Positions 1-61,616 of a DNA stretch of 64,000 nucleotides are shown piece by piece (the first letter of the stretch is position 1; the number at the start of each line of letters is the position of its first letter). The notes below the pieces were generated by a model. It saw only the letters and a program-made list of their open reading frames with translations, did no database searches and had not been told where the DNA came from. Source of the DNA: Nitrospirales bacterium (GTDB lineage Bacteria > Nitrospirota > Nitrospiria > Nitrospirales > NS-4). Location of the stretch: positions 1,046 through 65,045 of the forward strand of contig JAUSHW010000201.1 in NCBI GenBank assembly GCA_030648395.1, in the 5' to 3' direction. A program made the position numbers and the translations under genes.

Positions 1-135
1 CGGGGCCGCGGCCTCCTGCTCATCGAGTACGCAGTCCCAGCACTTGGGATTATTCGGCTGACGCGGCTCGCCACAGGGGCAGAGGTCCAGGGGCGAGGTC
101 ACGCCGCGCGGATCGAAGAGGGCCTGTATGGTCAT
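1..135 (-). CDS. hypothetical Cys-rich small protein, 5' part only (runs off left edge)
   Basis: Hand translation from ATG 135..133 gives MTIQALFDPRGVTSPLDLCPCGEPRQPNNPKCWDCVLDEQEAAAP, with no stop before position 1. ATGA overlap with the stop of 132..713. CxC...CxxC spacing. Confidence 0.4.
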   Translation of the reverse strand, partial: MTIQALFDPRGVTSPLDLCPCGEPRQPNNPKCWDCVLDEQEAAAP

Positions 136-713
136 GATTGGGCTCCTTTCGTAAAGACTAACTGGCTCCCGTTCCACGGCGCGTCCGGCGCGAATTCCTT
201 GACGAGGGCGTTGAGCGCAGGCCGGCATGCGGCCCCCGCCGTGTCGTACGCGGCCCTCGCCTCGTCGTACGCGGCCCGCGCCTTGCGGCACGCGGCCCCC
301 GCCTTGCCGTACGCGGCCAACGCCTTGTCGTACGCGGCCCACGCCTTGTCGTACGCGGCCCCCGCCTTGCCGTACGCGGCCCCCGCCTTGCGGCACGCGG
401 CCCCCGCCTTGCCGTACGCGGCCTCCGCCTCGTAGTACGCGGCCCTCGCCTCGTCGTACGCGGCCCGCGCCGTGTTGTACGCGGCCCCCGCCGTACAAAG
501 CGGGAGGGGAATCCGCGCGGTGGGCACGAGACAGATCGCCGCAAGACGGATGGCGCGCTCCTGCTTGGGCTTTTCTTTTCTGGTATCGGCGATCCGTTCC
601 TGGACGTTGGCGCTGTACTCGACGGGCTCGCCGGCGTGATGCAGGAGCGTGAACCAGCCCGTGGAGGGGCCTTCGTACTTTGGTTTGCCTGGGTGGGTTG
701 TATTGGTGGGCAT
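132..713 (-). CDS. AAY-heptad repeat protein, paralog 1
   Basis: ORF track, 193 aa. ATG 713 has AAAGGAG about 7 nt upstream. Conserved ~70-aa N-domain (GWFTLLHHAGEPVEYSANVQERIA), then 13 AAYxxAx heptads, then an LNxLVxEFxPxAPWNG tail. Paralog of 717..1271. Confidence 0.7.
   Translation of the reverse strand: MPTNTTHPGKPKYEGPSTGWFTLLHHAGEPVEYSANVQERIADTRKEKPKQERAIRLAAICLVPTARIPLPLCTAGAAYNTARAAYDEARAAYYEAEAAYGKAGAACRKAGAAYGKAGAAYDKAWAAYDKALAAYGKAGAACRKARAAYDEARAAYDTAGAACRPALNALVKEFAPDAPWNGSQLVFTKGAQS
213..485. repeat. 21-bp tandem repeat array (codes the AAYxxAx heptads) inside 132..713
   Basis: Units such as gccttgccgtacgcggccccc / gccttgtcgtacgcggcccac recur about 13 times head to tail. All six frames stay open across the array. 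Confidence 0.85.
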
Positions 714-716
714 GGG

Positions 717-1271
717 TTAGGCTCCTTTCGTGCTGGTTGCGGGGAAGATCAACGTCGTTCCATTCCAGGGTGCATTCGGCACGAATTCATTGACGAGGGT
801 ATTCAATTCATCCCGGTACGCGGCCCGCGCCCTGTTGTACGCGGTCCACGCCGGGTAACACGCCTTGCCGTACGCGGCCTCCGCCTCGTAGTACGCGGCC
901 CTCGCCTCGTCGTACGCGGCCCGCGCCGTGTTGTACGCGGCCCCCGCCTTGCCGTACGCGGCCCCCGCCTTGCCGTACGCGGCCCCCGCCTTGCCGTACG
1001 CGGCCCACGCCGTGCTGTACACGGCCAACGCCGTGTTGTACGCGGCCCACGCCGTGCTGTACGCGGAGGGAATGCGCGTCGTGGGCACGAGACAGATCGC
1101 CGCAAGACGGATGGCGCGCTCCTGCTTGGGCTTTTTTTTTCTGATATTGGCGATCCGTTCCTGGACGTTGGCGCTGTACTCGACGGGCTCGCCGGCGTGA
1201 TGCAGGAGCGTGAACCAGCCCGTGGAGGGGCCTTCGTACTTTGGTTTGCCTGGGTGTGTGAGATTCTTCAT
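717..1271 (-). CDS. AAY-heptad repeat protein, paralog 2
   Basis: Same N-domain, about 12 heptads and the same tail as paralog 1. Start placed at ATG 1271 (MKNLTHPG; AAGGA RBS; ATGA overlap with 1268..1477) rather than ORF-track 1304. Confidence 0.7.
   Translation of the reverse strand: MKNLTHPGKPKYEGPSTGWFTLLHHAGEPVEYSANVQERIANIRKKKPKQERAIRLAAICLVPTTRIPSAYSTAWAAYNTALAVYSTAWAAYGKAGAAYGKAGAAYGKAGAAYNTARAAYDEARAAYYEAEAAYGKACYPAWTAYNRARAAYRDELNTLVNEFVPNAPWNGTTLIFPATSTKGA
807..1067. repeat. 21-bp tandem repeat array inside 717..1271
   Basis: Same 21-bp unit family as 213..485, including three identical consecutive gccttgccgtacgcggccccc units. The number and order of units differ from paralog 1. 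Confidence 0.85.
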
Positions 1272-2969: not shown

Positions 2970-2978
2970 TGTGCTAGT

Positions 2979-3096
2979 CCTCCTTGGTTGTAGCCGGTGC
3001 CGCTTCCGCCGCGCCGGCCGTGTGGTTTATCAATCCTGCATACCTATAACTGAGTCACTCAGCTATTGTCAAGAGAATTCGAAAATAATTCTCCCT
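2979..3096 (-). promoter_or_regulatory. 118-bp promoter/operator/leader element, copy 1
   Basis: Identical to 4782..4899. On the minus strand: TTGACA (3072..3067), 18-nt spacer holding the perfect palindrome CTGAGTGACTCAG (3050..3062), TATAGG (3048..3043), ~55-nt leader, then AAGGAGG RBS. Confidence 0.65.
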
Positions 3097-3222
3097 TGCC
3101 CCCCAAGTGGTCGCACGTTTAATCGCCCGCTGGCCCTCATGTAACCGCGCTATAGCGTATCGCTGTAAGTGTGCTTGTGTAGCTTTGTCCATCGTTCGCC
3201 CCCTCGGTTCGTTGCGTGTCAT
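3055..3222 (-). CDS. hypothetical small protein with MTRNEP N-terminus (55 aa; alternative start 3192)
   Basis: ORF 3055..3249. ATG 3222 sits 5 nt after the upstream TAA. A second in-frame ATG at 3192 follows GAGGGGG. The 3' end runs into promoter copy 1, so coding status is uncertain. Confidence 0.35.
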   Translation of the reverse strand: MTRNEPRGRTMDKATQAHLQRYAIARLHEGQRAIKRATTWGARENYFRILLTIAE

Positions 3223-3454: not shown

Positions 3455-3531
3455 GCGTCCCCCTCTCGTGCGCCCGTGGCCTAGCCCCTTGTACTGCCCC
3501 CTGTACCACCAAGGGGCAGGGAAGAGGTTAG
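3455..3531 (-). repeat. intercistronic cassette, copy 1 (RBS box + alternative hairpins)
   Basis: gcgtccccctctcgtgcgcccgtggcctag + ccccttgtactgccccctgtaccaccaaggggcagggaaga. The two halves recur at 3892..3921 and 4004..4060. It spans from one gene's stop codon to the next gene's RBS. Confidence 0.8.
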
Positions 3532-3890
3532 CGTAGATAGTTCCATCGCTTTCCGTGAAGCGTCTCCGCGTTGACCGTGAGCACGTTGCCGAGATCGGCC
3601 TTTTTCTTCTTGTTGTAGTCCGGTCGCCCGTAGCCTGAGATATTGAACAATTCACCGTTGACGACATCCACAAGGAACGCGCCGGAGTTCCCACAATCGA
3701 GCGCATGAAACTTTCGCCGCTCGCTGGCGTGCCAGAAGTCTGCGGTATGTGTAAAGCCCTGCTCAGCGTGGCTGATTTTCTCGATGGTGTTAAGGCAGTC
3801 AATCACCCTACCAACTGCTTCATTCACTGTGGCCCGCGTGATTTCGATTGTGCTGTCCATGGTGCCCTCCGTTGGTTCGTTGCGTGTCAT
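3528..3890 (-). CDS. hypothetical protein with MTRNEPTEG N-terminus (120 aa; alternative start 3860)
   Basis: ORF track. ATG 3890 lies 5 nt after GAGAGGGGGA. A second in-frame ATG at 3860 follows GGAGGG. Confidence 0.6.
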   Translation of the reverse strand: MTRNEPTEGTMDSTIEITRATVNEAVGRVIDCLNTIEKISHAEQGFTHTADFWHASERRKFHALDCGNSGAFLVDVVNGELFNISGYGRPDYNKKKKADLGNVLTVNAETLHGKRWNYLR

Positions 3891-3891
3891 C

Positions 3892-4060
3892 GCGTCCCCC
3901 TCTCGTTCGCCCGTGGCCTAGTTTGCTAATTACGCGGGTAAAGGGGAAGGCGCTCTCCCCGTGAGCCTCTAGCGCTCTGCCTAGACATATCGCTTCACCC
4001 CGCCGTGGTCTAGCCCCTTGTACTGCCCCCTGTACCACCAAGGGGCAGGGAAGATGTTAG
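3892..4060 (-). repeat. intercistronic cassette, copy 2, split by an 82-bp insert
   Basis: The same two halves as 3455..3531, separated by 3922..4003. The insert is bracketed by cgtggcctag (3912..3921) and cgtggtctag (4004..4013). Confidence 0.75.
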
Positions 4061-4317
4061 ATTTCTGGTCCTTCGATGAAGTCGCCGTTCTGCAATCGAA
4101 CGATATATTCCCCACTGTCAATGTCCTGTTCAAGCGAACAGGCTTTTCCATCTGCAAATTCACGAATAGAGACTTCCCTGCCAAGGTACTGCTTAGCCAA
4201 CCACATAGGCTTGAGTGATACCGTGTGAGGCTCAATTGTGATAGTGTCCACAAAGAACGGTATGCTTCGTGTGCTTCGTCCCATTTTAATTCCCTCCGTT
4301 GGTTCATTGCGGGTCAT
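4057..4317 (-). CDS. hypothetical protein with MTRNEPTEG N-terminus (86 aa; alternative start 4284)
   Basis: ORF 4057..4359. ATG 4317 lies 5 nt after the upstream TAA (TAAccaccATG). In-frame ATG 4284 follows GGAGGG. Confidence 0.55.
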   Translation of the reverse strand: MTRNEPTEGIKMGRSTRSIPFFVDTITIEPHTVSLKPMWLAKQYLGREVSIREFADGKACSLEQDIDSGEYIVRLQNGDFIEGPEI

Positions 4318-4544: not shown

Positions 4545-4773
4545 TGACGAGTTCGCACTGTCCGCATGGAAGAGGATCATCTGGTGAGTTGAAATGCCAC
4601 GCTGCATGCCCCGCACTTTCAGTATATTCCAAGATAGAAGCCAATCGCTTGATCGTTTCGACTGGCACGGACACTTCAATGGTTTGCGTACCCTTGCCGT
4701 GCTTCTTTTCGGCCTTAAATCCAAATCTGTAGCCGCCGAATCCTACTACTGATCTACACGTTAAATACGTCAT
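4507..4773 (-). CDS. hypothetical protein (88 aa), first gene behind promoter/leader copy 2
   Basis: ORF 4507..4836 trimmed to MTYLTCRSVVGF. ATG 4773 lies downstream of the repeat-borne AAGGAGG. Confidence 0.6.
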   Translation of the reverse strand: MTYLTCRSVVGFGGYRFGFKAEKKHGKGTQTIEVSVPVETIKRLASILEYTESAGHAAWHFNSPDDPLPCGQCELVNGWFRLLQVPQL

Positions 4774-4781
4774 GTTCGCGC

Positions 4782-4899
4782 CCTCCTTGGTTGTAGCCGG
4801 TGCCGCTTCCGCCGCGCCGGCCGTGTGGTTTATCAATCCTGCATACCTATAACTGAGTCACTCAGCTATTGTCAAGAGAATTCGAAAATAATTCTCCCT
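4782..4899 (-). promoter_or_regulatory. 118-bp promoter/operator/leader element, copy 2
   Basis: Identical by eye to 2979..3096 (offset 1803 bp). TTGACA at 4875..4870, palindrome at 4853..4865, TATAGG at 4851..4846. It sits in the divergent gap between the leftward and rightward blocks. Confidence 0.65.
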
Positions 4900-7550: not shown

Positions 7551-7627
7551 TGCGGGGTGGAGCAGCCTGGTAGCTCGTCTGGCCCATACCCAGAAGGTCG
7601 CTGGTTCAAATCCAGCCCCCGCAACCA
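7551..7627 (+). tRNA. tRNA-Met (CAU), initiator-like, CCA encoded
   Basis: Hand-folded cloverleaf. Acceptor UGCGGGG/CCCCGCA, D arm GAGC-AGCCUGGUA-GCUC, anticodon arm UCUGG-CCCAUAC-CCAGA, T arm GCUGG-UUCAAAU-CCAGC. Outline close to bacterial tRNA-fMet. A11:U24 is present and position 33 is C. Confidence 0.85.
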
Positions 7628-7799
7628 TGACGCCGAGGATCCCGTCCTGTCGACGGGAAAGGCCGCGCGCCACTGGCGAAGCCGGTGCCGTGCGAGAGGC
7701 GAAGGGATCCCGCCCGGGTTGATCACCGGACGTTCGCCGAAAAAAATTATACTATTCTCGATATAATTCGAGGGTCGTTTTATATCATGCACGATATAC

Positions 7800-7874
7800 G
7801 CGAGCGTAACTCAGCGGTAGAGTCGCCGCCTTCCAAGCGGCCGGTCGGGGGTTCAACTCCTCCCGCTCGCTCCA
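7800..7874 (+). tRNA. tRNA-Gly (UCC), CCA encoded
   Basis: Acceptor GCGAGCG/CGCUCGC, D arm ACUC-AGCGGUA-GAGU, anticodon arm GCCGC-CUUCCAA-GCGGC, T arm GGGGG-UUCAACU-CCUCC, discriminator U. Confidence 0.9.
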
Positions 7875-7880
7875 TAACGG

Positions 7881-7955
7881 GCCGGTGTAGCTCAGAGGTA
7901 GAGCGGCTGATTCGTAATCAGCGGGTCGGGGGTTCAACTCCTCCCGCCGGCTCCA
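7881..7955 (+). tRNA. tRNA-Thr (CGU), CCA encoded
   Basis: Acceptor GCCGGUG/CGCCGGC, anticodon arm GCUGA-UUCGUAA-UCAGC. The T arm is identical to that of the adjacent tRNA-Gly. Confidence 0.9.
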
Positions 7956-7982: not shown

Positions 7983-8231
7983 ATGCCTGAGTCACGCGAA
8001 TGCGGCTGCCCGTATCCCGGGCCCCATACCGCGCACTGCCTGGCGCCGCTGGACGGCTGCCGGCCGCGCGGGGGTGATCCCGCGCACGACCATACGTGGA
8101 TTCAAGTACGCGCCGGTGGCTGGCTGATGAAGGCGGTCTGCACGTGCAAGACGATCCGGCGATTCGTCCTCCAGGACTTCAACCGCGAACTCGCGCTCGG
8201 GAAGATGACCCTCCTGCCGAGGCGGGCGTGA
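7983..8231 (+). CDS. hypothetical Cys/His-rich protein (82 aa)
   Basis: ORF track. GGAGGATTAGTAG-ATG RBS. Its stop overlaps the proposed GTG start of terL. Confidence 0.5.
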   Translation: MPESRECGCPYPGPHTAHCLAPLDGCRPRGGDPAHDHTWIQVRAGGWLMKAVCTCKTIRRFVLQDFNRELALGKMTLLPRRA

Positions 8232-9718
8232 CGCCCGATCTGGACCCCGCCCACGGGAACGCCGCCCTCGCGGCCCTCATCGAGAAGCTCCTCGCCCAGC
8301 GGGCCCTTGAATTTTATCAGCCCTATCCGAAACAGAAAGAATTTCATCGCCTCGGGACCACGATCGACGAGCGCCTGCTGATGGCAGCCAATCAAGTGGG
8401 CAAGACCGTCTGTGCCTCGCGCGAGACCGCCTACCACGCCACCGGGAGGTACCCCGACTGGTGGGAGGGCCAGCGCTGGACGCGGCGGACCGTCGGCTGG
8501 ACCGGCTCACCAACCGGGCAGACCTCGCGTGACACGGTGCAGCGCCTGCTCCTCGGACGGACGGAGGATGGCTGGGGGACGGGGGCCATTCCGGAGGCCG
8601 ATATTTTTGACATCAAGCGCGCCAGTGGGAGTGTCCCGAACCAGGTCGAGAGTATTATCGTGAAGTCGGTCTTCGGCGGCGTCTCGACGATTACGCTCAA
8701 GACCTACGACCAGGGCCGCCTCCGGTGGCAGGGGGAGAGCATCGACTACGTCTGGTACGACGAGGAGCCGCCGGAGGATATCTACAGCGAGGGGAAGACG
8801 CGCACGCAGGCCTCCAAGCCACGGGGGACGTTTGTCTACATGACCTTTACGCCCCTGTTGGGCATGACGAGCGTCGTCAACCGGCTGACGAAGGAGAAGC
8901 CCGCGCGCACGCAGGTCATCGGCATGACGATCCACGACGCGCAGCACTACACGGACGAGGAACGCGCGCGGATTATCGCCGGCTATCTGCCGCACGAACG
9001 CGAGGCGCGGGCACTCGGTATTCCCGTGCTCGGCTCCGGCCGGGTGTTCACGATCCCGGAGGAGGAGCTCCGCTGCGAGCCGGTTGCCATTCCGGCGTTC
9101 TGGTATCGAATCAACGGGATGGACTTCGGCTGGGACCATCCGACGGCGAACGCCTGGCTCGCGTGGGACAAGGACAACGACATCATCTACGTCTATGCGG
9201 TTCATCGCCAGCGGGAGACGACCCCGTTGGTGTATGCCGCGGCGATCAAGGCCCGCGGGCCCTGGATCCCGGTGGCGTGGCCGCATGACGGCCTGCAGCA
9301 CGATAAAGGCAGCGGCGTCCAGCTTGCCCAGCAGTACAAGGCCCAGGGTGTGAATATGCTGAAGATGCGCGCGACGCATCCGCCCCTGCCGGGGAAGGAA
9401 GAGGGGAGCGGGGGATTCGGTGTCGAGGCGGGTATCCAGGACATGATCGACCGGATGCAGACCGGCCGCTGGAAGGTGTTCCGGACGTGTGCCGATTGGT
9501 TTGACGAGTATCGCATGTATCATCGGAAGGACGGCCTAATTGTGAAGGAGGGGGATGACCTCATGGCCGCCTCTCGGATCGGGAACATGATGAAACGCTT
9601 CGCGAAAGTAGCCCCCGCACCAGCGCGGCCGGCGGCCCCGCGATTTGTGGTCACGGATCCTTCAATGGGTGTCTTAGGCTCCTTGGCACTGATGATGCTC
9701 GCGGGATTATTTCTATGA
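8228..9718 (+). CDS. terL: terminase large subunit
   Basis: ORF 8096..9718. Start moved to GTG 8228 (GTGA overlap). Walker A AANQVGKT, an acidic WYDEEP stretch that could serve as Walker B, then a nuclease-half pattern (GMDFGWDHP...). Typical length. Confidence 0.9.
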   Translation: MTPDLDPAHGNAALAALIEKLLAQRALEFYQPYPKQKEFHRLGTTIDERLLMAANQVGKTVCASRETAYHATGRYPDWWEGQRWTRRTVGWTGSPTGQTSRDTVQRLLLGRTEDGWGTGAIPEADIFDIKRASGSVPNQVESIIVKSVFGGVSTITLKTYDQGRLRWQGESIDYVWYDEEPPEDIYSEGKTRTQASKPRGTFVYMTFTPLLGMTSVVNRLTKEKPARTQVIGMTIHDAQHYTDEERARIIAGYLPHEREARALGIPVLGSGRVFTIPEEELRCEPVAIPAFWYRINGMDFGWDHPTANAWLAWDKDNDIIYVYAVHRQRETTPLVYAAAIKARGPWIPVAWPHDGLQHDKGSGVQLAQQYKAQGVNMLKMRATHPPLPGKEEGSGGFGVEAGIQDMIDRMQTGRWKVFRTCADWFDEYRMYHRKDGLIVKEGDDLMAASRIGNMMKRFAKVAPAPARPAAPRFVVTDPSMGVLGSLALMMLAGLFL

Positions 9719-14114: not shown

Positions 14115-17036
14115 ATGGCGAGTACACCAGCAATTATCGTTGACGGCGCGACCAACAGCGTCAAAGGGCAGCCGGGGTCCAGCGACGCCGGCGGCGCGGT
14201 CGTTCTTGCAGGCGGGCTCGGGGCCTCCACCTATGCGGGTGGACTGGTTTCCCTGACCGGCGGCGCGGGCACCACAACTGGGGCCGGCGGGGCTGCCAGT
14301 GTGGTCGGCGGCGCGGGCGGGGATGACGCCGTCGGCGGCACGCTGACCCTCACGGCCGGCGCGGCCGGCGGGGGCAATCGTGCGGGAGGGGCGACCACGA
14401 TCGCGGGCGGAGCCGGTAGCGGCACCGGTGCGGGTGGCGCGGCCACGCTCACCGGTGGAGCCAGCGGAACGGGCGCCACGGGCGCGGGCGGTGCCGCAAC
14501 GGTGACGGGCGGCGCGGCCAGTTCGACGAACAATGTGGGCGGCGTGGCCTCGGTCGTCGGCGGCGCGGGAAACGGAACGGGCAACGGTGCTGCGGCGAAG
14601 CTGACCGGCGGCGTCGGCGGAGCCACCTCTGGCGTCGGCGGCGCGTGCACGATCAAGGGCGGCGCGGGCGGAAGCTCGGCGGGAGCGGGCGGCGCGGTGA
14701 CGCTGGACGGTGGCGGGGCCACGGCCGCGGCCACGGCCGGCGGAGCAATTACGATCACAGGCGGATTGTCGACGACCTCTGCCGCGGGCGGCGCGGTGAC
14801 GCTCGTCGGCGGCGGTGTCGGGACGACCGGAATTGGCGGACTGGTCTCCATCACGGGTGGCGTCGGTGGGACGTCGGGTGCGCGTGACGGCGGTGCGGTC
14901 TCGCTGATCGGCGGCGCCACGGGCGCGGCCAGCACGGGCGTCGGCGGCGTGGTCACGATCACCGGCGGTGCGAGCACGGCCGGCGGGGCCAGCGGAGCGG
15001 GCGGTGCGGTCGCCATTACGGGCGGCGCGGCCGGGACGACGAACGCAGCCGGCGGGGCGGCCAGCCTCATTGGCGGTGCGGGATCCGGAACGGGGAACGG
15101 CGGAGCGGTCACGTCCACGGGTGGACTCGGCGGGGCGACCTCCGGAGTCGGCGGGGCCCTGGTCTTCACGGGCGGCGCGGGGGGATCCTCGGCCGGCGCG
15201 GGCGGCGCGGTTTCGCTGATCGGTGGGGCGGCTACGGCCGGCGCCACGGCGGGCGGCGCGGCAAATTTGAAGGGCGGCGCGAGCACAGGATCTGGAACCG
15301 GCGGACTGGTCACCATCACCGGCGGCGCGGGGAGCGCGGCCACGGGTGTCGGCGGCGGGGTCACCGGAGCGGGCGGACTCGGAAATACGACCGGCGCTGG
15401 TGGGGCGGTCTCCTGGACGGGCGGCGCGGGCGGCACGGATGCCGTCGGCGGGACGGCCAGTCTGATCGGCGGCGCGGCCGGCGGTGGAAACCGTGCAGGC
15501 GGTGCAGCCGCTCTGACGGGCGGCGCGGGTGCGGGGACCTCCGACGGCGGAGCCTCCACGGTCACCGGCGGCGCGGGTGGGGCGACCTCCGGTATCGGTG
15601 GGGCGGCCTCCATCGTGGGCGGTGTGGGCGGAACGTCGGCCGGTGCGGGCGGGGCGGCTCTCGTCACGGGCGGCGCGGCCACGGGTGCGGCCACAGCCGG
15701 CGGGGCGGTCACGATCGCGGGCGGACTCTCGACGACCTCTGCGGCAGGTGGTGCGATTACGATCACGGGCGGCGGCGTCGGGACGACCGGAGTCGGCGGA
15801 TCGGTGGCGGTTGCCGGTGGCGTGGGCGGCACCTCGGGTGCGAGGAACGGCGGTGCCGTCTCGGTGATCGGCGGCGCAGGTGGCGCGGCGGGTATCGGAG
15901 ACGGTGGGATTGCCACCTTCAAGGGTGGTGCGAGCGGAACGGGTGCCACGGGCGCGGGCGGTGCGTTAGCCATCACGGGCGGTGCCGCGGCCTCGACGGA
16001 CGGTGCCGGTGGTGCGGGCGTCATCGCGGGCGGCGCGGGCGCGGGCACGGGCGCCGGTGGACTGGTCTCCCTGACGGGCGGCGCGTCCGGTGCGGGCGCG
16101 ACGGGCAACGGTGGCGCCGCAACGTTGAAGGGGGGAGCCTCTCTGTCAACGGCTGGCGACGGTGGGGCGGTGAGCGTGACCGGCGGCCTGGGCACGACGA
16201 CCGGAGCGGGCGGGGCCATCACGGTGACGTCTGGCGCGGGCGGGACGTCCGGTCTGAGCGGCGCGGTGACGATTGCGAGCGGCGCGGGTGGGACGACCTC
16301 GGCGTCGGGTACGCTGACGATTCGCACGGGTGCCGTCACGGCGACGGCCGGTGCGGCTTCCGGAGCCATGACCATTGAAACCTCTGCCGGGGCAACCGGA
16401 GCAACCTCAACGAACGGCGGCGCCTCGGGTGCGATGACCTTACAGACGTTGGCCGGCGGGACGACGGGGACGGGGACCGGCGGCGCGGGCGGACTCATTT
16501 CAATCCTGACGGGCGTCGGCGGTTTGACGACGGGCGTGGGAACCGCGGGCGGAGCCGGCGGTGGCCTGACCGTGACGACGGGCAACGGTGGCGCGGGCTC
16601 AACCCCGACCACGGGCGGTGTGGGCGGCGCGATTGCCGTGACGGCCGGGAACGGTGGCAACGGGACCACGGGCGGTGTGGGCGGCGCGATTGCGCTCGTG
16701 GCCGGTAATGCCGGAACGGGCGGGAACGTCAACGGGGCGAACATCGACCTGACGCCCGGGACGCTGACGGGGACGGCCTTGAACGGGCATGTGCGGATTG
16801 CACCGGCCACGGCGACGCCGGCCAACGGCGTCTCATCCGGGACGATTGCGAGCAAGGTCGGTCTTCTGTTCGGGAGCACGGCCGGATTCGGCATCTACAT
16901 CGGATCGAGCACGCCGTCTCTGACGGCGGCCCAGGGCTCGTTGTATCTGCGGAGTGACGGCTCGAGCACGAGCACGCGGGCGTACATCAATACGGACGGC
17001 GGGACGACCTGGACGGCCGTGACGACCGCCGCATAA
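14115..17036 (+). CDS. Gly/Ala/Thr-rich repetitive fibre protein (973 aa)
   Basis: ORF track. CAGGAGG RBS. Dozens of GGxGG / (T/S)(L/I)(T/I)GG units with long-range internal duplications. C-terminus GSLYLRSDGSSTSTRAYINTDGGTTWTAV resembles fibre-tip motifs. Confidence 0.8.
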   Translation: MASTPAIIVDGATNSVKGQPGSSDAGGAVVLAGGLGASTYAGGLVSLTGGAGTTTGAGGAASVVGGAGGDDAVGGTLTLTAGAAGGGNRAGGATTIAGGAGSGTGAGGAATLTGGASGTGATGAGGAATVTGGAASSTNNVGGVASVVGGAGNGTGNGAAAKLTGGVGGATSGVGGACTIKGGAGGSSAGAGGAVTLDGGGATAAATAGGAITITGGLSTTSAAGGAVTLVGGGVGTTGIGGLVSITGGVGGTSGARDGGAVSLIGGATGAASTGVGGVVTITGGASTAGGASGAGGAVAITGGAAGTTNAAGGAASLIGGAGSGTGNGGAVTSTGGLGGATSGVGGALVFTGGAGGSSAGAGGAVSLIGGAATAGATAGGAANLKGGASTGSGTGGLVTITGGAGSAATGVGGGVTGAGGLGNTTGAGGAVSWTGGAGGTDAVGGTASLIGGAAGGGNRAGGAAALTGGAGAGTSDGGASTVTGGAGGATSGIGGAASIVGGVGGTSAGAGGAALVTGGAATGAATAGGAVTIAGGLSTTSAAGGAITITGGGVGTTGVGGSVAVAGGVGGTSGARNGGAVSVIGGAGGAAGIGDGGIATFKGGASGTGATGAGGALAITGGAAASTDGAGGAGVIAGGAGAGTGAGGLVSLTGGASGAGATGNGGAATLKGGASLSTAGDGGAVSVTGGLGTTTGAGGAITVTSGAGGTSGLSGAVTIASGAGGTTSASGTLTIRTGAVTATAGAASGAMTIETSAGATGATSTNGGASGAMTLQTLAGGTTGTGTGGAGGLISILTGVGGLTTGVGTAGGAGGGLTVTTGNGGAGSTPTTGGVGGAIAVTAGNGGNGTTGGVGGAIALVAGNAGTGGNVNGANIDLTPGTLTGTALNGHVRIAPATATPANGVSSGTIASKVGLLFGSTAGFGIYIGSSTPSLTAAQGSLYLRSDGSSTSTRAYINTDGGTTWTAVTTAA

Positions 17037-17044: not shown

Positions 17045-19504
17045 ATGGCCGGAGTCGCAGAACTTCCTCCTGAGATTCAAGAAGCCCTCCAGGACCGCCA
17101 GGTGTTCAGCCAGGCGGTCCTGGATCAGCTTGCGACCGTCCTCGAGGAGAAGCTGAAGAAGGCGGTCACGGATCGGAAGACCAAGGGGATCGAAGCCACA
17201 TGGACGATGGCCGAGGAATCCTACTGCGGGATTGACGAGGCCAACCGCCATGAGTTTAACGAGGGGACGTGGATTAAACCCCTCACGATTAACGCCCCTG
17301 TGCAGACGACCTCCCGCAAGGGAGACCCGAGCGAGAATCCGAAGTCGACCGCCTTCGTGCGGCTCACGAGCCGGTATGTAGACGCCGGGGCGGCAAAAAT
17401 TGGTGAAGTGATCCTCTCCCCGACGGACAAGGCTTTCAATATCAAGCCGATGCCGATGGAGGAACTCGTCGAGGGGATGAAGGATACGAGTCCGGTCCTG
17501 CAGGAAGGTCAGACGCTTCAACGGAACGCTAAGCCGGAAGAGATCCAACCCGGCGAGCAGGGTGCCAACGGGCTCCCGCCTGGGCGTGATCTCCTGACGA
17601 AGGACCTCGCGGAGGAGGCGATCACTCTTCGCGCAAAGTCGGCCGAGAAGGCGGAGACGCGTATCTATAGCTGGCTCACACGCGCCGGCTATACGCGCGA
17701 GATGCGGAAGGTTATCTTTGACGCGGCGCGGATTGGGGTCGGCATCCTGAAGGGCCCCTTCCCCGAGAAGATCCGGGTCATGGCCGTCAAGAAAAATAAG
17801 ACCGACGGGCGCATTGGTCTGATCATCGAGGAGAAGATCGTCCCGACCTGCCGGTGGGTGAACCCCTGGTTCATCTATCCCGATCCGGCGTGTGGGGAGG
17901 ATCTGCATAGCGCGGATTATATTTTTGAGCGCGACGGGCTCTCCCCGAAACAGGTGCGAAAGTTGAAGGGTCTCCCCGGCTACTTGGATCACGAAATTGA
18001 CGCCGTACTCGAGAAGGGCCCCGATAAAACTCGGATTGATTCGCGCGCACCGAACGAGAAGAAGAACGAGGACCAGTTCGAGGCCTGGTACTACTACGGC
18101 CGGATCCCGCGGTCGGCCCTCGAGGCTGGGAATGCCGAGGCGGCCAAACCGATTCCGGCAGACAGGAAATTCGTCGACGCGATCGTGACGATGATCAACG
18201 GGCGACCCATTAAGGTCGTCCTGCAGACGCTGGACTCCGGCGAGGGGATCTATCACTCGGTCCCCTGGATGCGACGGACGGGCTACTGGGCCGGGATCGG
18301 CGTTGCCGAGCAGGTGCAGATGCCCCAGCGGATGATCAACGCCGCCACGCGCGCGATGCTGAATAACGCGGGCGTCTCCGGTGGGCCACAGATTGTCATT
18401 GACCAGGGGGCGATCACGCCCGTCAACGGGCAGTGGTATCTGACGTCCGGGAAGCTCTGGTACAAGTCGACGGAGGGCACGACGGACGACGTCAACAAGG
18501 CCTTCCAGACGTACGACATTCCGAACGTCGTCGACCCGATGATGAAGATCATCAACTACGCCCTCCGATTGGCGGAGGAGTCCACGAGTATCCCGCTGAT
18601 TACCCAGGGGCAGTCGGGGAAGACGACGCCGGAGACGTTCGGGGCGACCCAGCTCCAGAACAACAACGCGAACCAGTTGCTCCGGAGTATTGGTTACTCG
18701 TTCGACGACCATATCACGGAGCCGTTCATTCATCGGTGCTACGAGTGGCTGCTGCTCGATCCGGACGTCCCGGAGGACGAGAAGCAGGAGTTCCTCATTG
18801 ACGCCCACGGGTCGAGTGCCATGGTCGAGCGGGCGATTCAGGATCAGACGATTACGCAGATGTTTCCCGAGCTGCTCGCGAACGCGGGCGCCTTCGGGAT
18901 CAATCCGAAGCGGCTCTTCGCGCAGCTCTGGAAGATGCGCCACCTCGACCCGGCGGAGGTCCAGAATACGCCCGAGGAGCAGCAGAAGATTGACAGCCAA
19001 CAGCCGCCGCCTCCGCCCGCGGTCCAGGTGGCGATGATCAAGGCTCAGACGGCGGAGAAGACCCTCCAGGCGCAGGCGACGCGCGGGCAGGAGGAGGACG
19101 CCCTCGTGCGTGAGATCGAGCAGCTCGACTCGCAGGTCAAGATTGAGATCGAGACGATTCGCGCGCGGACGCAGGAACTGAAGAGCAAGCTCGACACGGA
19201 CCGGGACACGGTCTACGTCGAGGCGGAGACCACGAAGGCCCAGGCGGTCTTCTCTCAGAAGATGGAAGAGCTCCGACTCAAGAAGGAGCTCGCCATCATG
19301 CAGTACGCGAACGAGCACCAGGTCACGATGGAGGGTGTCAAAGCGAAACTGGCCGAGACCGCGATGAAGCTCAAGGTCGAGAAGGAACTCAATGCGGCGG
19401 CGCTGGGGGCGGATCTGCATAAGCATCACACCCCCTCGGCCGACAAGCCACCCGTCCAGGTGGCCGGGAAGGCGCCCAATGGCCGGGCGATGGCACAGGC
19501 ATGA
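17045..19504 (+). CDS. portal protein (putative, N4-size class)
   Basis: 819 aa. Sits directly upstream of a small ORF, an acidic scaffold-like ORF and the capsid gene (portal-scaffold-capsid synteny). C-terminal Gln/Glu coiled coil. No motif-level proof. Confidence 0.7.
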   Translation: MAGVAELPPEIQEALQDRQVFSQAVLDQLATVLEEKLKKAVTDRKTKGIEATWTMAEESYCGIDEANRHEFNEGTWIKPLTINAPVQTTSRKGDPSENPKSTAFVRLTSRYVDAGAAKIGEVILSPTDKAFNIKPMPMEELVEGMKDTSPVLQEGQTLQRNAKPEEIQPGEQGANGLPPGRDLLTKDLAEEAITLRAKSAEKAETRIYSWLTRAGYTREMRKVIFDAARIGVGILKGPFPEKIRVMAVKKNKTDGRIGLIIEEKIVPTCRWVNPWFIYPDPACGEDLHSADYIFERDGLSPKQVRKLKGLPGYLDHEIDAVLEKGPDKTRIDSRAPNEKKNEDQFEAWYYYGRIPRSALEAGNAEAAKPIPADRKFVDAIVTMINGRPIKVVLQTLDSGEGIYHSVPWMRRTGYWAGIGVAEQVQMPQRMINAATRAMLNNAGVSGGPQIVIDQGAITPVNGQWYLTSGKLWYKSTEGTTDDVNKAFQTYDIPNVVDPMMKIINYALRLAEESTSIPLITQGQSGKTTPETFGATQLQNNNANQLLRSIGYSFDDHITEPFIHRCYEWLLLDPDVPEDEKQEFLIDAHGSSAMVERAIQDQTITQMFPELLANAGAFGINPKRLFAQLWKMRHLDPAEVQNTPEEQQKIDSQQPPPPPAVQVAMIKAQTAEKTLQAQATRGQEEDALVREIEQLDSQVKIEIETIRARTQELKSKLDTDRDTVYVEAETTKAQAVFSQKMEELRLKKELAIMQYANEHQVTMEGVKAKLAETAMKLKVEKELNAAALGADLHKHHTPSADKPPVQVAGKAPNGRAMAQA

Positions 19505-33526: not shown

Positions 33527-36500
33527 ATGGGAGACCTCAACCTCAGCGCCTTTGAGACGCCCACAGCCGAACCGGCCGAGGGATTGAATCTCTCTGCCTT
33601 TGAGCCGGCGTCTCCGCCATCCTCGTCCGACGTGCTCCGTGGCGCCACGACGGCCATCAAGCAACTGCCTCAGCTTACCTACGGCCTCGGCGCCGGGTTG
33701 ATGGCGACCAGTCAATCCCTCAAAGAATTTGTCGGGCAAAAATACAGCGGCTACGCGCCGCAAGCTGGCGAAACGACCTTCGATAGCGATCAGCTTGTGA
33801 AGGAGTACCTCGTTGGAAAGTCTCGCGCCTGGGGCGAGGAAATTGCCAAGGAGACAAAAGCGACTGATTCGTTGGTGACGGCGTATGAGCGTGCAAGCGA
33901 GGGGGATTATGGTGCGCTCGTTGATTGGATGCAGTACGGCATTGGATACGGCGGCGTGCAGGTTCTTCAAATGCTCGGCAGCGCAGGCGTCGGCTCCGTG
34001 TTCGGGAAGGCGGCCCTGAAGGAAGTAACAGCCCAGACAGCGGAGCGATTGGTGACGAAAGCCTCCATCGGCCTGGCGGCCGAATCGGGTGGAAAACTCA
34101 CCGGCGAGGCGTTGACGAAAGCTGCGGTTGAACAGGTCGCCTCCAAGATCGGACAATATACAGCCCTCGCCGCCACGGCCACAGGCATGGAGGGCGGTGA
34201 GATTCTCGGTGGAGTGGCCGAGCAATCTGTTGACGAAGGCCGAAGCCTTCGGGGAGACGAACTGGCAAAAGCGTGGGGTGCAACCCTTGCAGCCGGCGCG
34301 CTCGAGTTCGTGGGCGACAAATTCGGCCTTGATCTCGTCACCGGGAAGATAGGGAAGTTTGCTGGAGCGAGGGGGCGGCTCGCGCGCGGAGGCATCCTCG
34401 GGGCCGCCGACGCGGGCGTCGAGAGTGGGACGGAGTTTACTCAGACGCTCGTGGAGGAGGCGGGAAAGGGGCACGATCCATTTACGCTGAAGGCGGTGCG
34501 TGACGCCATCGACGCCGCAGGCCTCGGCGCGATTATGGGAGGCGTCGTCGGCGGGACATCGGGCGCGCTGACCCCCTCCGCCCCGCCGTCTATTACCGGT
34601 ACCGTCCCCCCACTGCCTAAGAGTGGAACTGGAGAAGAGCCGCCGCCCGAGCCTCCTATCATTCCGCCCGACGCGGTTGAGGCTGCGACGGCGTCAATCG
34701 TCCCTCCGCTTCCTGGCATTCTGGATCTGACGCGCGAGCGCGACGACGCGAAGCTCATCGTCCAGGAGATCGCCGAGCGCGTCAATCATCTCGAGTCGAT
34801 TGGTTTGGGCGTTCCGAACTTTCTCCGCGACGAGTTAGAGGCGGCAAACGAGCGCTTCCGCAATCTGAAGGCCGAGCAGGCGACCGTCGTGGAGATTCCG
34901 ACGTCCGTCCTCGCGGCGCCGGATGTCGCGAGCGCCATCACGCAGGCCCAGGCCTTCGTTGACAACCGACCCGCAGCCCCTGCTGGGGAGAACCTTCCAT
35001 TCAGCCGCAGTGAAACCTTTCAATCAGCCTTGGAGTCCCACATTGGCTCCGAGGCCTACACGGAGGCCACCCATGCCGGAGACCAAGCCGCCCTTATTGC
35101 CGCCGTCCGCAACGCCACCGGCTTTGACGACGCCGGGGGGCTCCCCACCCTGCACGGCCTCCCCCTCCGCGCCGTTGCGCCCGAGAGGTTGCCTGACACC
35201 GCTGATACGCCGGGGCAGCTCACACGAGGTCAGTACGACGCCGCCAATCTCTTCCTCGGACTCTTTGGTAAGCGCGCCGTAGTCTTCGAGGACCACCCAG
35301 CGATGGCGGGGTTTGTCGCGCCTGAGGGGGGCGATCAGTCGATCGTCTTCCTCGGCTCGCGGAGCGAGAGCCATCCGCTGGCCGTTGTCGCCCACGAGCT
35401 CGGCCATCTGCTCGAGGGCACGGAGGCCTATCGCGCGTTCCAGGCGGTGCTCCTCGAGAACCTGGACCCGGAAGCCAAACTGGCCGCGCGCGAGCGCCAC
35501 ACGACCGCCAAGACGGACCTGGAACTCTTCAACGAAATCTCCGCGGACGTGAAGGGCGACGCCATGACCGATCCCGCGTTCATGACGAAGCTCGTGGCGC
35601 GGATGCGGGAGAAACTCGGGGACGAGGAGACGAAAGTTCAGGCGCGTACGTTCCTGGACGTCATCCGCGACGTTATTGCGAAGTTTACCGAGCGCATTGG
35701 GATCCGTATGTCCGACGACTACCTGCCCTATATCACGAACCTGGAGAAGATTCACGACGCGCTCGCCATAGCCGTCGCGGAGGCGTACCTGAAGGGCACG
35801 ACGCCCACCGCTGAGAAGGGGAAGCTGAAACTCTCAGAGCGCCAGACCGGTGAGGGCGCGCGCGAAGTCGTCCATCCGGAGGCGGTGGAGAAATTCAGCG
35901 GGCTGGCGTCCGCGCAACGCGATAAACCAGAAGCCGCTATGCTCACGGTACAGATGACCCACGGTGGGGGCGTCCTCAATCCGGTCGTGGAGCACGTCGG
36001 GGATCTGACCCACCGGATGTCGCACCACGCACGGCACGGCACCGCGTACCGCGCCGAGGTGGCGTCGAAGATCGAGCGCGCCCTCGCGGCCCTCACGCAC
36101 CCCTACGGCTTCGAGAAGGAGCACGCGGAGAACCTTCGGAACAACGCCCGCGGATGGACGAAGGAAGGGAAACCCATCTCCACGGCGGATCTCCGCAAGG
36201 CCGTCCACGCCGCCATGGACGAGTACGCCGCGGAGCACCGGAAACTCTCCGTCTACAACCTCCCGCAGTGGCTTGCGCGCGAGGCGGCGGTGGCTGTGGG
36301 CGAGCGGCGCTGGGACGACGCGATCCGACGGCTGAAGGAACTCCACGAGATCGTGAAGTCTGCGGACTACGACCGGCAGGCGCTGGCGGTGAATAGGGAC
36401 AAAAAGGGGACAATTCTCACCTTCGAGGAAATTGGCGAGGTCCTGACGGACGCGGAGAAGCTCGCCCAGCAGAAAGTTTCGTCAGAAAAAGAGACCATTT

Positions 36501-39500
36501 TATCTGACAACGACCTTACCCCCAACGGCCGGCAGGACGATGGTAAGGGCGGTGGATTTGACCTCTACACCACCACTCGCGAACTGCCGGTCTTGACGAA
36601 GAACGACCTCTACCCGCACGCCGCGATCCCGAAGGGCGGGACCGTCAGCCGGCAGACGCTCGAGGCGAGCGGCTATCGGCTAGCCGACGATTTACTCAAT
36701 TCATTGAGTAAGATTCAACTCGCCCCTCGCAAACACCCGGAGCACAAGCGCACCTCCGAGGGGAAGTACGTCGGCGCCCCGCCGGCCGTCGTGAGCCCGG
36801 CGAAGCTCACGAAGCTGCGTGAGATTCTGAAGGGGCTCGCGAAGGAGGGAAAGGCCGGGCGCTTCTGGCATGAGAAGTCGAGCCACGCCATCCTCGATCT
36901 CGCCGAGGGCAACCGGAACCTCGCTGAGAAGATTGTCGGCCTGATTGCGATCTACAGCCCGCGGCAGGGGATCCTCGGGAATATGACCTCCGCCCTGACC
37001 GCCTACTACCAGTGGGCGAACGGCAAGCCGATCACCACGCCCGGACGGAGTGGCCTCGAGCCCGCGTACCGCGCCGAGGCGTGGATGCACGAGAGCGCCA
37101 CCGAGGAGACGATCACTGGGATCAAGCGCTCCAACTTCTACAAGAACCTCATGCGCGTCATCAACCCCGCGGCGCTCGGCACCGAGGCCCAGGGCGTGAC
37201 GGTGGATATGTGGATCGCCCGTGCGATGGGGTACTTCAAGACCACCGTCGGGAAGGCCCAGTATCTCTTCACCGAGCGGGAGATCAAGCACCTCGCGTCG
37301 ACCCTCGGGTGGGAACCGCAGCAGGCCCAGGCCGCCGTCTGGGTGGCCGTCCGGAGTCGGATACAGGCCCCGGTCGAGCGGGACGGGGTGATGACGACCC
37401 TCTATGAGGCGACCCGGAAGGACGCGGTCACTCGCGGATGGCTCGAGAGGGTCACGAACTACTCCAAATCCGGCCAGGCCTATACGCACCACAAGGCGGT
37501 CGACGCAGAGCGCGGGCGCGCCTTTGAACGCCTCCTCCTCCAGCGGGCGTTGAAGCTCGATTCGGTCGAGATCGACAGTCTGGACTTCTCCGACGCGCTC
37601 AAGCAGCGCACCGCGCAGATCTCCTGGGAGGCCACCCCCGGGAAGACGTCCCTCATCCTCCCCGGCATCCACGGCGCGACGCTCGGCCAGCAGGCGGAGT
37701 ATCTCGCCGCGGTCGACGCGGCCTTGCGGGGGGATTATGGACAGGATCTCATTGCCGAGAAGTTGAACCTCGCCGGCGCGAACACCATCTTCGGCCCCGG
37801 GGCCTGGCAGGGGAACATCACGGTCGGCGCCCAGACGCGGACGGCCATCGGACTCCAGACGGACGCCGACGGTCTTCAGCGCGTCTCGGACGACGCCCGT
37901 GCCCTGATCAACCTCTATGCCGATATCCGCGGCTATACGATGAGCCAGGAGGGGGTCTATTGGGCCTATCCCTTCTACGAGGAGACGAAAGCCAAGGCGA
38001 ACGGCGTCCGGCTCCTCTTCGGCCGCGCGCTCGATACGACAGAAATGGGTAGCCTCTATCGGGCCATTATGGACGTCGCCGGGCATGACGAGTGGGCCCC
38101 GGCGTACACGGAGGACGGCGCGTTTATTTTGAATTTCAAGACCGAGGATCATCTCGCGTTTCAGAAGACGATTAAAGAGGCGGTCGGCCGACTGCCGGAC
38201 GAACTGTCGGCCACGATGAAGACCTTCCGCTCGGACGGCGACGCGCGGATGAATGATTGGAAGGAGTCCCCCCATGGCGAGAGTTATCGAGAGCGGATCG
38301 GTGCCGAAGGAGGACCCGATGTTCTCCAGTGGAGTGCGGATCTACGGCAAGCCGTCGTTGGCGTCAACGAGCACTTCAGCGAGCGATACGACTGGGGGAA
38401 TCCCGGAGAAGCCTACCCCGAAGCCGCTGAAGTAGAGACCCAGCAGACGGACGTCAGCCCGAGTACCGGGCACGATATCCGCTTCGCCCCGCGGAACTTC
38501 CCCGTCGCCTACCAGCGCATGGCAGACGAGTACGACGCGGCACCCGTCTTGGATAAGGCGGCCATCCCTGCGTGGAACGCCCTGCGAGATGATACCGCGC
38601 GGCGCTACAAGGAGATCCTTCTCAAGGTCCACGTCGAACGGGTCACCGGGCAGCCTTACACGGACGCAACCAGTATGATCGCCGACATTGCGAAGGGCTC
38701 GTTCAAAGTCACCACCGATTACAGTGAGCACCCGGTCTGGACCGTCGAGGAAAATGTGCAGTTCCGCGTGGTGCACGATTACCTCGGGCACTTTAAGACC
38801 GGGTATGACTTTAGTCTCTATGGCGAGCAGCGCGCCTACGCCGCCCACGCTGAGTTGCTGACAGACCCGCTGGCGAAGCAGGCCCTCAAGGTCGAGGTCT
38901 ACGGGCAGGCCGCGGCAGCCGTGTCACACGACGGCGTCTTCCAGGTCCAGAAGATTTTCCTCCCGAAGCCGGACGTTCGTAATTTTGACGCCGAGTGGGC
39001 CGCGCAGAGTGGCGGCCAGAAAATGGCCGAAGAACGCGGTCTCAACATGACCGGCAACGAGTACCTGACGCGTATTGAACGTGCTCGGGCGACTGGGATA
39101 GGGCAAGGCCGGCTGCCTAGAGACATCCGCTTCGCCCCCCGCGACGCGACGCCGCCCTACGGTCTGAAGACGCTCCCCAAGGGCGCGAAGGTGCCGCGGG
39201 TGCAGTGGGATAAGGATGAACTGCGCGAGAACGAGGACGCCCTGCGGGACGATTACGCCCAGACCGGCCCGAACGAACTCGAGCACACGATCTATCCGAC
39301 CGTCTACCGTGCTTGGGTGCCAATGGATGACGTGCCGAGGGCCCGCATCGCCGACCGCGCGCAGGATCGCGCCAAGGGTGGATACGACTGGAGTGAATAT
39401 AAAAAGACCGGGGTCTTCCCGCCGGTGACCATTCAGCTCCACCCGAACGGCGTCGCAACCTCCCTCGACGACGGCAACCATCGCGTGCGCTATTGGCGCG

Positions 39501-61418: not shown

Positions 61419-61616
61419 ATGATACTCCGTCAGGGGTGGCGCCGGCATCGTCTTGGTTACCGCTGGATCTATGTGTTTACCTATTGCCTCAACGGCTTCT
61501 ACGTGAGGCGTACACTCCTGCCGGCTGAGATCCGCGCGGCCAAATTCAATGCCTGGGAGGCCGAGGAGCGGGAGGCCGTCTGTCTTGCTCGGCGGCACTG
61601 TGGGATTCTCTCGTGA
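61419..61616 (+). CDS. hypothetical basic protein (65 aa)
   Basis: ORF 61410..61616 trimmed to MILRQGWRRH. GTGA overlap with the primase start. Confidence 0.45.
   Translation: MILRQGWRRHRLGYRWIYVFTYCLNGFYVRRTLLPAEIRAAKFNAWEAEEREAVCLARRHCGILS

Follow-up and report, generated by a model that had tools for sequence, protein, structure and literature searches.

Coiled coils of the Alacoil type are defined, in the passage of PMC3037368 that cites Gernert et al. 1995, by a small residue (alanine) at every seventh position of the core (a or d), an antiparallel arrangement of the helices and an unusually close spacing between them of about 7.5–8.5 Å. The subject of this study is a pair of adjacent genes at the left end of a 64-kb stretch of phage DNA (contig JAUSHW010000201.1 of the Nitrospirales bacterium assembly GCA_030648395.1; the whole 64,000-nucleotide stretch that was analysed is called the window). 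Each gene encodes a small protein with a central array of AAYxxAx heptads specified by 21-bp DNA repeats. Alacoils and alanine zippers, including ROP, the tetramerisation helix of the Lac repressor, the colicin E3/E9 hairpin and Lpp, represent the structural class closest to this array, although no match to them was statistically significant (best Foldseek E = 0.03). As in these proteins, the core alanines recur every seven residues. The helices are predicted to be antiparallel in the model of paralog 1, but a short family member, P0107, is modelled with one long helix. However, in the window proteins alanine appears at both a and d, with a third alanine at c. Moreover, the units are near-identical and tandemly encoded, their number varies between close relatives, and the predicted rod is inserted between the two halves of a head.

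In the poly-psi region of NeuO from prophage CUS-3, the number of RLKTQDS heptads changes by slipped-strand mispairing, alleles contain 1–31 heptads and the number tunes the activity of the enzyme (PMC3046976). This is the closest analogue in evolutionary mechanism, and in both systems the heptad number varies between close relatives. However, the DNA unit of NeuO is 7 nucleotides (nt) long, so that slippage also switches the frame on and off, whereas the unit described here has 21 nt and never leaves the frame. In NeuO the heptads lie at the N-terminus of a known acetyltransferase fold, are basic and, being disordered in the crystal, do not form a coiled coil; those of the window proteins are internal, alanine-rich, confidently predicted to be helical and associated with an uncharacterised head.

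The repeats of transcription activator-like effectors (TALEs) are near-identical and differ at a few hypervariable residues. The units described here are similar in that they are homogenised at the DNA level, with the differences concentrated in the exposed codons 4, 5 and 7. The analogy is one of evolutionary pattern only; the units are 7 and not 34 residues long, there is no homology and there is no sign that each unit reads one target element. Factors of the DksA/TraR type combine a globular zinc-finger part with a coiled-coil hairpin, and phage-encoded examples exist. The predicted layout of the present family is comparable, with a small, probably zinc-binding part made of N- and C-terminal segments and a protruding two-helix hairpin. 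Membership of the DksA/TraR group was rejected, as there was no match to Pfam zf-dskA_traR, no C4 finger of the form CxxC-x17-CxxC and no conserved acidic tip, the tip being another repeat unit. Furthermore, the length of the predicted hairpin varies several-fold and is therefore incompatible with reaching a fixed site in the polymerase channel. What is new in the proteins described below is the undescribed head domain that carries the rod; repeat-driven variation of a coiled coil is in itself already known.

Results

Two adjacent paralogs with 21-bp repeat arrays

The two genes are encoded on the minus strand as open reading frames (ORFs) 132–713 and 717–1271, with 3 nt between them. Paralog 1 (132–713) specifies 193 amino acids (aa) and is identical to the NCBI metagenome-assembled genome (MAG) protein Q7R68_10795 (P0001, 100%). 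Paralog 2 (717–1271) specifies 184 aa and is identical to Q7R68_10800 (P0002). The ATG was taken as the start of paralog 2, the mechanical ORF from an upstream GTG extending to 1304. The two proteins are 70% identical overall, and both consist of an N-terminal domain (N-domain), a heptad array and a C-terminal tail (C-tail). The description given in the sequence-only reading, tandem paralogs that contain 21-bp repeats and have the N-domain and the C-tail in common, was borne out by repeat detection, a table of units and nucleotide comparison.

The N-domain of paralog 1 (aa 1–69; 507–713, minus strand) includes the family-invariant residues H25, H26, E32, R40, K48, E52 and R56. The N-domain of paralog 2 (aa 1–68; 1068–1271, minus strand) is identical to it at 185 of 192 nt and 60 of 64 aa. 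The C-tails, NALVKEFAPDAPWNGSQLVFTKGAQS in paralog 1 (135–212, minus strand) and NTLVNEFVPNAPWNGTTLIFPATSTKGA in paralog 2 (720–803, minus strand), have about 70% nt identity; the aligned segments LNALVKEFAPDAPWNG and LNTLVNEFVPNAPWNG agree at 42 of 60 nt across 20 codons. Paralog 1 keeps W180 and G182, which are conserved throughout the family, in its tail, and V, A and A occupy the positions of the putative zinc ligands H/C/C.

Tandem Repeats Finder identified 21-bp arrays at 229–492 (12.6 copies, 86% matches, score 360) and at 861–1066 (9.8 copies, 87% matches, score 251), the sole large tandem arrays across the 64 kb. When read in frame, the array of paralog 1 (213–506, minus strand) begins with LPLCTAG, continues with twelve clean AAYxxAx or AACxxAx units (234–485) and ends with AACRPAL, the two flanks being degenerate. 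The array of paralog 2 (804–1067, minus strand) comprises 10 in-register units (858–1067), followed by YPAW, which shifts the register by four residues, and by two shifted units (804–857). The earlier counts of 13 and about 12 heptads agree with these figures.

DNA-identical units, which had also been proposed, were found. The unit GCCGCGTACGGCAAGGCGGGG occurs six times with no difference at the DNA level, and the four-unit block AAYNTAR-AAYDEAR-AAYYEAE-AAYGKAG is present both at 402–485 (minus strand; units 2–5 of paralog 1) and at 858–941 (minus strand; units 7–10 of paralog 2), with 82 of 84 nt identical. The occurrence of the same block at different positions of the two arrays shows that there has been block transfer or unequal exchange between them. 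The source of the window is a short-read MAG contig of 65,739 bp, and the exact number and order of the units are subject to long-read confirmation.

The frame on the minus strand is the coding one, as hundreds of metagenomic proteins of independent origin conserve the N-domain and the tail that it specifies. The reverse-strand ORFs in the GC-rich (guanine- and cytosine-rich) repeats were also considered as genes but were rejected, as they are not conserved elsewhere.

A conserved head with an interchangeable linker

A search with paralog 1 retrieved 116 proteins, all of them metagenomic and without Pfam domains; the nearest non-self relatives of the window proteins had E values of 1e-29 or better. 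These homologs have the same layout of N-domain, heptad run and tail. The consensus of the N-domain is xWHxHHxxLxE...R..YI...KP..E...RLRL..PV.G.LP and that of the tail is ...LHA.ECP.CPWDG.TIFP. The family-defining motifs HH-x(4-5)-E, R and K-x3-E-x3-R and the C-tail motif W-[DN]-G are kept by both window proteins, and in the alignment columns each of the invariant residues, the seven of the N-domain together with W180 and G182, is retained in both. An N-domain profile was run exhaustively against 1.84 billion representatives, and the matches were counted as clusters at 50% identity. The count was 1,982 with a threshold of E ≤ 1e-3 and fell to 1,157 when the threshold was E ≤ 1e-10. Judged by these sequence matches, the family is metagenome-only, undescribed and large (about 2,000 clusters at 50% identity).

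The linker between N-domain and tail was classified in 142 of the best representatives of the N-domain profile search. It was nearly absent in 24 and clearly 7-periodic in 35, and the remaining 83 had a long linker with weak periodicity or none. Several flavours of 7-periodic array occur, including AAYDKAx, QKYDEAR, KKWDEAY, AEWDKAR, ADYDKAD, EEYARAR and TKWEEAE. Among the loci taken from IMG/VR and from GTDB MAGs, L009 has no array of any kind and L010 and L013 have non-repetitive linkers. Because the linker ranges from absent to periodic to non-periodic, the conserved entity is the head, which comprises N-domain and tail. By the same comparison, the window's AAYxxAx array is one lineage's version of an expandable and interchangeable linker.

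The array and the head were also seen in other combinations. In P0069, P0075 and P0112, AAYDEAR/AAYDKAW arrays are attached to an unrelated N-domain (MCxFISWIE...GHGAI...) and are followed by a different C-terminus; the heptad array would therefore act as a module common to several protein families. In P0135, P0161, P0180 and P0218 pentapeptide repeats are joined to the N-terminal side of the head, and these proteins have no heptad hairpin. The repeats of P0161 gave a Qnr/HetL-like NCBIfam match, and those of P0135, P0180 and P0218 were read from the sequence. The fusion proteins look as if the pentapeptide module and the heptad rod replace each other on the head. Six loci from GTDB MAGs (L011–L016) have family members on contigs binned as Candidate Phyla Radiation (Paceibacterota, Yanofskybacteria and Saccharibacteria) and Desulfobulbia. 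The low-GC versions in these loci have RAYDEAR or QAYDKAx heptads, not AAYDKAx.

Gain and loss of whole units and diversification of exposed codons

Proteins with N-domains at least 90% identical and tails at least 85% identical were defined as close relatives, which gave 13 pairs. The length of the linker differed in all 13 pairs, and in 12 of them the difference was an exact multiple of 7 residues, corresponding to 1 to 6 heptads. Close relatives thus differ by whole heptads, as expected if the gain and loss of units is ongoing, which had been the proposal. The sequence-only reading had named identical arrays in all relatives, together with a known structural repeat family, as grounds for abandoning it; neither was found.

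The silent sites of the units are fixed within each gene, and fixed differently between genomes. The unit codons are GCC GCG TAC ... GCG in the window, GCC GCC TAC in L001 and L004, GCT GCT TAT in L002 and GCG GCC in L003. These genome-specific silent sites therefore indicate concerted evolution of the units and conservation of the heptad as protein, not as a DNA motif. Among the 22 units of the window there were 605 nonsynonymous and 9 synonymous pairwise codon differences, and the variation is confined to nt 8, 10, 11, 13, 14, 19 and 20 of the 21-mer. When 16 arrays from different loci were compared, the per-site nonsynonymous difference between units (pN) exceeded the synonymous one (pS) in 15 (sign test, p ~0.0005). 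Position 7 of the heptad is R in 297, W in 259 and G in 188 of the units counted in the 116 proteins. Its codon is NGG in every locus whose DNA was read, and R, W and G are therefore single-step neighbours.

Predicted structure of the head and the rod

The structure of paralog 1 was predicted with AlphaFold2 using the family alignment. The model had a mean predicted local distance difference test score (pLDDT) of 95.0 and a predicted template modelling score (pTM) of 0.82. It contains strands at residues 19–22 and 31–34 and helices at 37–47, 50–59, 70–112 and 118–174. The turn between the two long helices lies inside the central AAYGKAG unit (aa 113–117), and the tail makes beta-bridges at residues 180 and 184–185. 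Because of the predicted helices 70–112 and 118–174 and the bridges of the tail, the array is predicted to double back as an antiparallel hairpin of two helices, so that the C-tail and the N-domain meet. A variable-length Ala/Tyr-striped helix had been expected from the sequence. The helicity of the array agrees with the model (pLDDT 95), but one long helix does not, as two antiparallel helices are predicted instead.

The composition of the heptads in the 116 proteins was projected onto a helical wheel. Positions 2 and 6 are alanine in 91% and 92% of cases, have the lowest entropy and lie 51 degrees apart. Position 7 (R/W/G), which has the highest entropy, and position 4 are the most variable and lie on the opposite face from Ala2 and Ala6, which are flanked by Tyr3 and Lys5. 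The Ala2/Ala6 pattern is the sequence signature of Alacoil or alanine-zipper coiled coils.

The head was also inspected for a putative zinc site. The full set of putative ligands, a histidine two residues before HH and the tail motif H-x3-[C/H]-x2-C, was present in 137 of 220 family sequences. Cysteine and histidine interchange at one of the ligand positions, variant cysteine spacings (CGC and C-x7-C) occur, and sequences that lack the N-domain histidine mostly lack the tail ligands as well. Such interchange and correlated loss are typical of a structural zinc site, and the tail is therefore probably stapled to the N-domain by zinc in most members of the family. In the window proteins all four putative ligands are replaced, by L, V, A/V and A, and both proteins belong, with P0007, P0035 and P0023, to a ligand-less subgroup that has an N-terminal extension.

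Searches for a known family

The window proteins, 88 family members and the linker-less members were compared with Pfam, PHROGs, NCBIfam and PADLOC, and no significant match was obtained. The profile libraries gave sub-threshold coiled-coil noise, with hits to tail fibre/tape measure proteins, SMC, Rad50, JetC, LmuB, PspA and Alanine_zipper. A protein search of INPHARED detected no cultured-phage relative of the family. Sequence-profile searches of the PDB returned nothing below E = 0.05, whether the profile covered the full family or only the N-domain. Foldseek searches of both models, that of paralog 1 and that of the short family member P0107, against the PDB and BFVD yielded only generic helical hairpins (best E = 0.03) and none for the short model. 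The neighbours of the paralog 1 model were the receptor-binding domains of colicins E2, E3 and E9, the AcrA/MacA hairpins and SH3BP5. A profile of the N-domain alignment found only two truncated proteins in a word-indexed protein database, and a literature search on the heptad strings found nothing relevant. The statement that no characterised family contains this repeat, made originally from the sequence, therefore holds for Pfam, NCBIfam, PHROGs, PADLOC, the PDB and cultured phages.

Three candidate identities were rejected. The profile of the Lpp/OprI alanine-zipper lipoproteins (PF11839, NF040598) gave weak sub-threshold hits in 9 of 88 members, with a best E value of 2e-4, and none in the window proteins; the NCBIfam scores were 24 and 19 bits, below the cut-off of 43, and there was no N-terminal signal or lipobox. 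Some homologs carry the Joint Genome Institute (JGI) label 'TPR repeat protein'. The label is not supported, as the period is 7 aa, not 34, and no TPR family passed in Pfam, where a single TPR-S hit was seen in 1 of 88 members (E = 0.007). A DNA mimic was rejected as well, as the units are neutral to basic and not acidic.

Recurrent paralogy and the genomic context of the family

The ORFs around the gene in 20 loci were subjected to an all-against-all comparison. No conserved partner gene was found across these loci; only extra copies of the family recurred. Five of the 20 loci (L002, L006, L010, L018 and the window) have two or three copies per phage. The copies form an adjacent pair in L002 (8001–8450 and 8447–8866) and a pair in L006 (5182–5904 and 5986–6444), the latter encoding 240 aa with about 24 heptads and 152 aa with 8 heptads. 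There are two copies in L018 (4841–6525). The heads are closely similar within each of these three loci, and those of the three copies in L010 (4319–7110) are divergent. The contigs that carry the family gene were always those of phages, and its neighbours there were either small early genes without annotation or genes of replication and recombination. The context in L002 includes DNA polymerase A, a methyltransferase, a clamp-loader-like ATPase and RecA; in L019 it includes an integrase, YqaJ, RecT and Rep_O, and in L018 a rIIB-like gene. In L001, inspection of the sequences by eye suggested that one ORF resembles a PD-(D/E)XK nuclease and that another may resemble a primase.

The surroundings of the paralogs in the window

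The left end of the window is a tightly packed minus-strand operon that holds both heptad genes, which are joined to their neighbours by ATGA start/stop overlaps at 132–135, 1268–1271 and 1474–1477. Upstream in the same operon, two small minus-strand ORFs (1474–1716 and 1268–1477) overlap each other and paralog 2 by ATGA, and neither has a Pfam match. The heptad genes had been placed at the end of the early operon. This placement was not borne out, as another minus-strand ORF (1..135, start only) begins at the ATG 133–135, which overlaps the stop of paralog 1, and runs off the edge of the window.

Marker genes and tRNAs identify the 64-kb window as a phage genome. There are genes for a T4-type large terminase (8096–9718), an SU10-like portal (17045–19504), an SNF2 helicase (48764–50290), a DUF2800/PD-(D/E)XK nuclease (56063–57316) and a Prim-Pol/VapE primase-helicase (61613–63931). 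Three tRNA genes, Met-CAT, Gly-TCC and Thr-CGT, lie at 7551–7955 on the plus strand, directly upstream of the terminase. When the window was compared with the INPHARED phage collection at the DNA and protein levels, no relative emerged.

Several other elements were observed. In the early region, the small minus-strand ORF 2775–2969 matches DUF7417 (PF24192, E = 3.6e-10) and is the only neighbour with a family match. The same minus-strand region has a 127-nt direct repeat (2970–3096 and 4773–4899), the copies of which are 97% identical and 1.8 kb apart; no Rfam family was found for it. Modules of 37 nt occur at 3186–3222, 3854–3890 and 4281–4317, and further repeats of 30 and 58 nt are shared between 3455–3531 and 3892–4060. 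The copies are 84–97% identical, except that the third 37-nt copy is 62% identical. Each 37-nt copy spans the 5' end of one of three consecutive minus-strand ORFs, all of which start with MTRNEP or similar, and the 30- and 58-nt copies are situated just upstream of two of the three. This arrangement suggests that the modules are duplicated promoter, leader or gene-start cassettes. On the plus strand, just upstream of the portal gene, a 973-aa ORF (14115–17036, 75% GC) encodes a Gly/Ala/Thr-rich repeat protein (GGAGxGTGAGGAxTLTGG...) with no Pfam match, and a long mirror ORF (14231–16894) lies opposite to it. The structural module includes a single plus-strand ORF of 3,851 aa (33527–45082).

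Discussion

Family membership, domain layout, the helicity of the array, gain and loss in steps of seven residues, silent homogenisation with a nonsynonymous excess and recurrent paralogy are demonstrated or strongly supported by the comparisons described above. The interpretation that we favour, and consider reasonably probable, is that the protein consists of a head and a variable alanine-core rod, that the rod is under selection and that the protein functions in an early interaction between phage and host. The head would be formed by the N-terminal ~55 residues, a beta-hairpin and two short helices, together with the C-terminal ~25 residues that include the W-x-G motif. The rod between the two segments would be an antiparallel two-helix Alacoil or alanine-zipper coiled coil of AAYxxAx heptads, with Ala2 and Ala6 in a tight core, Tyr3 and Lys5 flanking it, and positions 4 and 7, with position 1, facing the solvent. 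The gain and loss of whole 21-bp units would proceed by slipped-strand mispairing or by unequal recombination, inside single genes as well as from one paralog to another. Such turnover would leave the silent sites uniform, with the exposed codons remaining or becoming distinct. The head would then be a conserved binding module and the rod an extension, variable in length and surface, under diversifying selection. The combination of a variable rod with a conserved head would fit a phage-host role, perhaps host takeover or anti-defence, in early infection, and the position of the gene in related phages fits such a role.

Several observations weigh against this interpretation. In one array, that of L002, pS exceeded pN, and the pN>pS result is a comparison between repeat units and not a formal site-model test. 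The 13 pairs of close relatives are a sample biased to variable pairs, as the 90% clustering of the database merges relatives of equal length. Arrays that are short and heterogeneous can be stable, as at least 24 contigs, obtained in several runs, contain P0078 in identical form, and its five units are rather dissimilar. The instability of an array therefore probably scales with the identity and number of its units. The short member P0107 was modelled with a pLDDT of 91.6 and a pTM of 0.57 as one 37-residue helix (53–89) and a short one, and an antiparallel domain-swapped dimer with the same contact between head and tail would therefore be compatible with this model. The core packing and the zinc geometry were deduced from sequence patterns and not from model coordinates. 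Moreover, the proposed role in host interaction or anti-defence draws only on the position of the gene, the expansion of paralogs and the diversifying surfaces of the units.

The possibility was considered that the array is a neutral, slippage-prone linker that has expanded neutrally or as a selfish element. In that case the head does the work, the array needs only to be helical and to return the tail, and its length and surface are not selected. No particular array seems to be needed, as the linker may be near-absent, non-repetitive or made of quite different heptads, and the repeat number is spread evenly from 4 to 14 or more without a preferred length. However, a neutral linker predicts that pN is about equal to pS, whereas pN exceeded pS in 15 of 16 arrays and the differences in the window were 605 to 9. 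Furthermore, the variable codons are those that face the solvent, and paralogs with different arrays have repeatedly been kept side by side. We consider a wholly neutral array rather unlikely. The fold itself could also differ from the hairpin. In a domain-swapped dimer, each chain would contribute one long helix, the helices would be antiparallel, and each end would have a head made of one N-domain and the tail of the other chain, which would give a dumbbell shape, perhaps as a heterodimer of the paralogs. The single 37-residue helix and low pTM of P0107 would suit this arrangement, the paralogs are found in pairs, and Alacoil-type sequences are, according to the passage of PMC3037368 that cites Gernert et al. 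1995, classically antiparallel dimers or tetramers. Nevertheless, a hairpin is predicted with confidence for the monomer of paralog 1 (pTM 0.82), and linker-less members must close the head within one chain. An obligate heterodimer is difficult to reconcile with paralog arrays that differ in length, about 24 and 8 heptads in L006 and 13–14 and 12 in the window. From the model we infer a hairpin rather than the swapped dimer, which appears unlikely.

Other explanations place the cause in the DNA, in a mutator or in the assembly. The 21-bp repeats might be iterons, or protein-binding sites of an origin located inside the gene, with the heptads as a secondary consequence; iterons of a replication origin are embedded in the O gene of lambda. 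A 21-bp unit corresponds to two helical turns, the unit length and copy number resemble those of iteron arrays, and in several phages the gene is in or beside a replication module. However, the heptad is kept despite different coding (GCC GCG TAC GAC AAG in the window, GCT GCT TAT GGC AAA in L002 and GCG GCC TCC GAC AAG in L003). The variable bases are the first and second positions of three codons while the third is fixed, which is a protein-level pattern, and many family members have no DNA repeat. A role at the DNA level is accordingly very improbable. Mis-assembly of the arrays or of the paralog pair from short reads would be conceivable for a MAG contig, as assemblers can be confused by sequences such as the roughly 190 nt that are 96% identical between the two genes and the 84-nt block common to both. 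Yet the same architecture, including adjacent paralog pairs, recurs in hundreds of assemblies that are independent of one another and were made in different projects with different assemblers; an artefact is hardly credible as an explanation, and only the exact unit count and order are at risk here. The exposed codons could, in principle, be diversified by a diversity-generating retroelement or similar targeted hypermutation. Most of the variable bases would be adenines in a hypothetical template GCC GCG TAC AAC AAG GCG AGG, and position 7 toggles among the NGG codons for R, W and G throughout the family. But the coincidence with adenine follows trivially from the invariant codons being those of alanine, and non-adenine sites vary too, such as T to C in codon 3 of L004 and the G at nt 20. 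Furthermore, there is no reverse-transcriptase motif in any frame of the window, no reverse-transcriptase Pfam match in six related loci with precomputed annotation, and no pair of template and variable repeats, only tandem units. A retroelement therefore deserves next to no credence.

A head with a selected, variable rod may also be taken a step further. The heptad hairpin could be a rapidly reprogrammable binding scaffold that displays two to three exposed, diversifying residues per unit on a rigid alanine-core rod, although we regard this extension as improbable. A phage that shuffles its 21-bp units and retains more than one paralog would thereby acquire a repertoire of rods, and the head would serve as effector or anchor. 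The rods might recognise or block polymorphic host targets, such as defence sensors or periodic cellular polymers. The logic would resemble that of the hypervariable residues of TALEs or of variable lymphocyte receptor repeats, but on a coiled coil, in phages and in early infection.

A head domain with no detectable structural relative and a rod of variable length are predicted with very high confidence in a large, uncurated phage family. The family is an unusually clear example of how a folded part of a protein can be built up and altered by tandem repeats in the DNA. If the length and surface of the rod are irrelevant, these proteins would be a good model for the tolerance of slippage-prone linkers in small proteins. 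If the length and surface matter, they would represent a new class of evolvable phage effectors and a natural modular coiled-coil scaffold for protein engineers.

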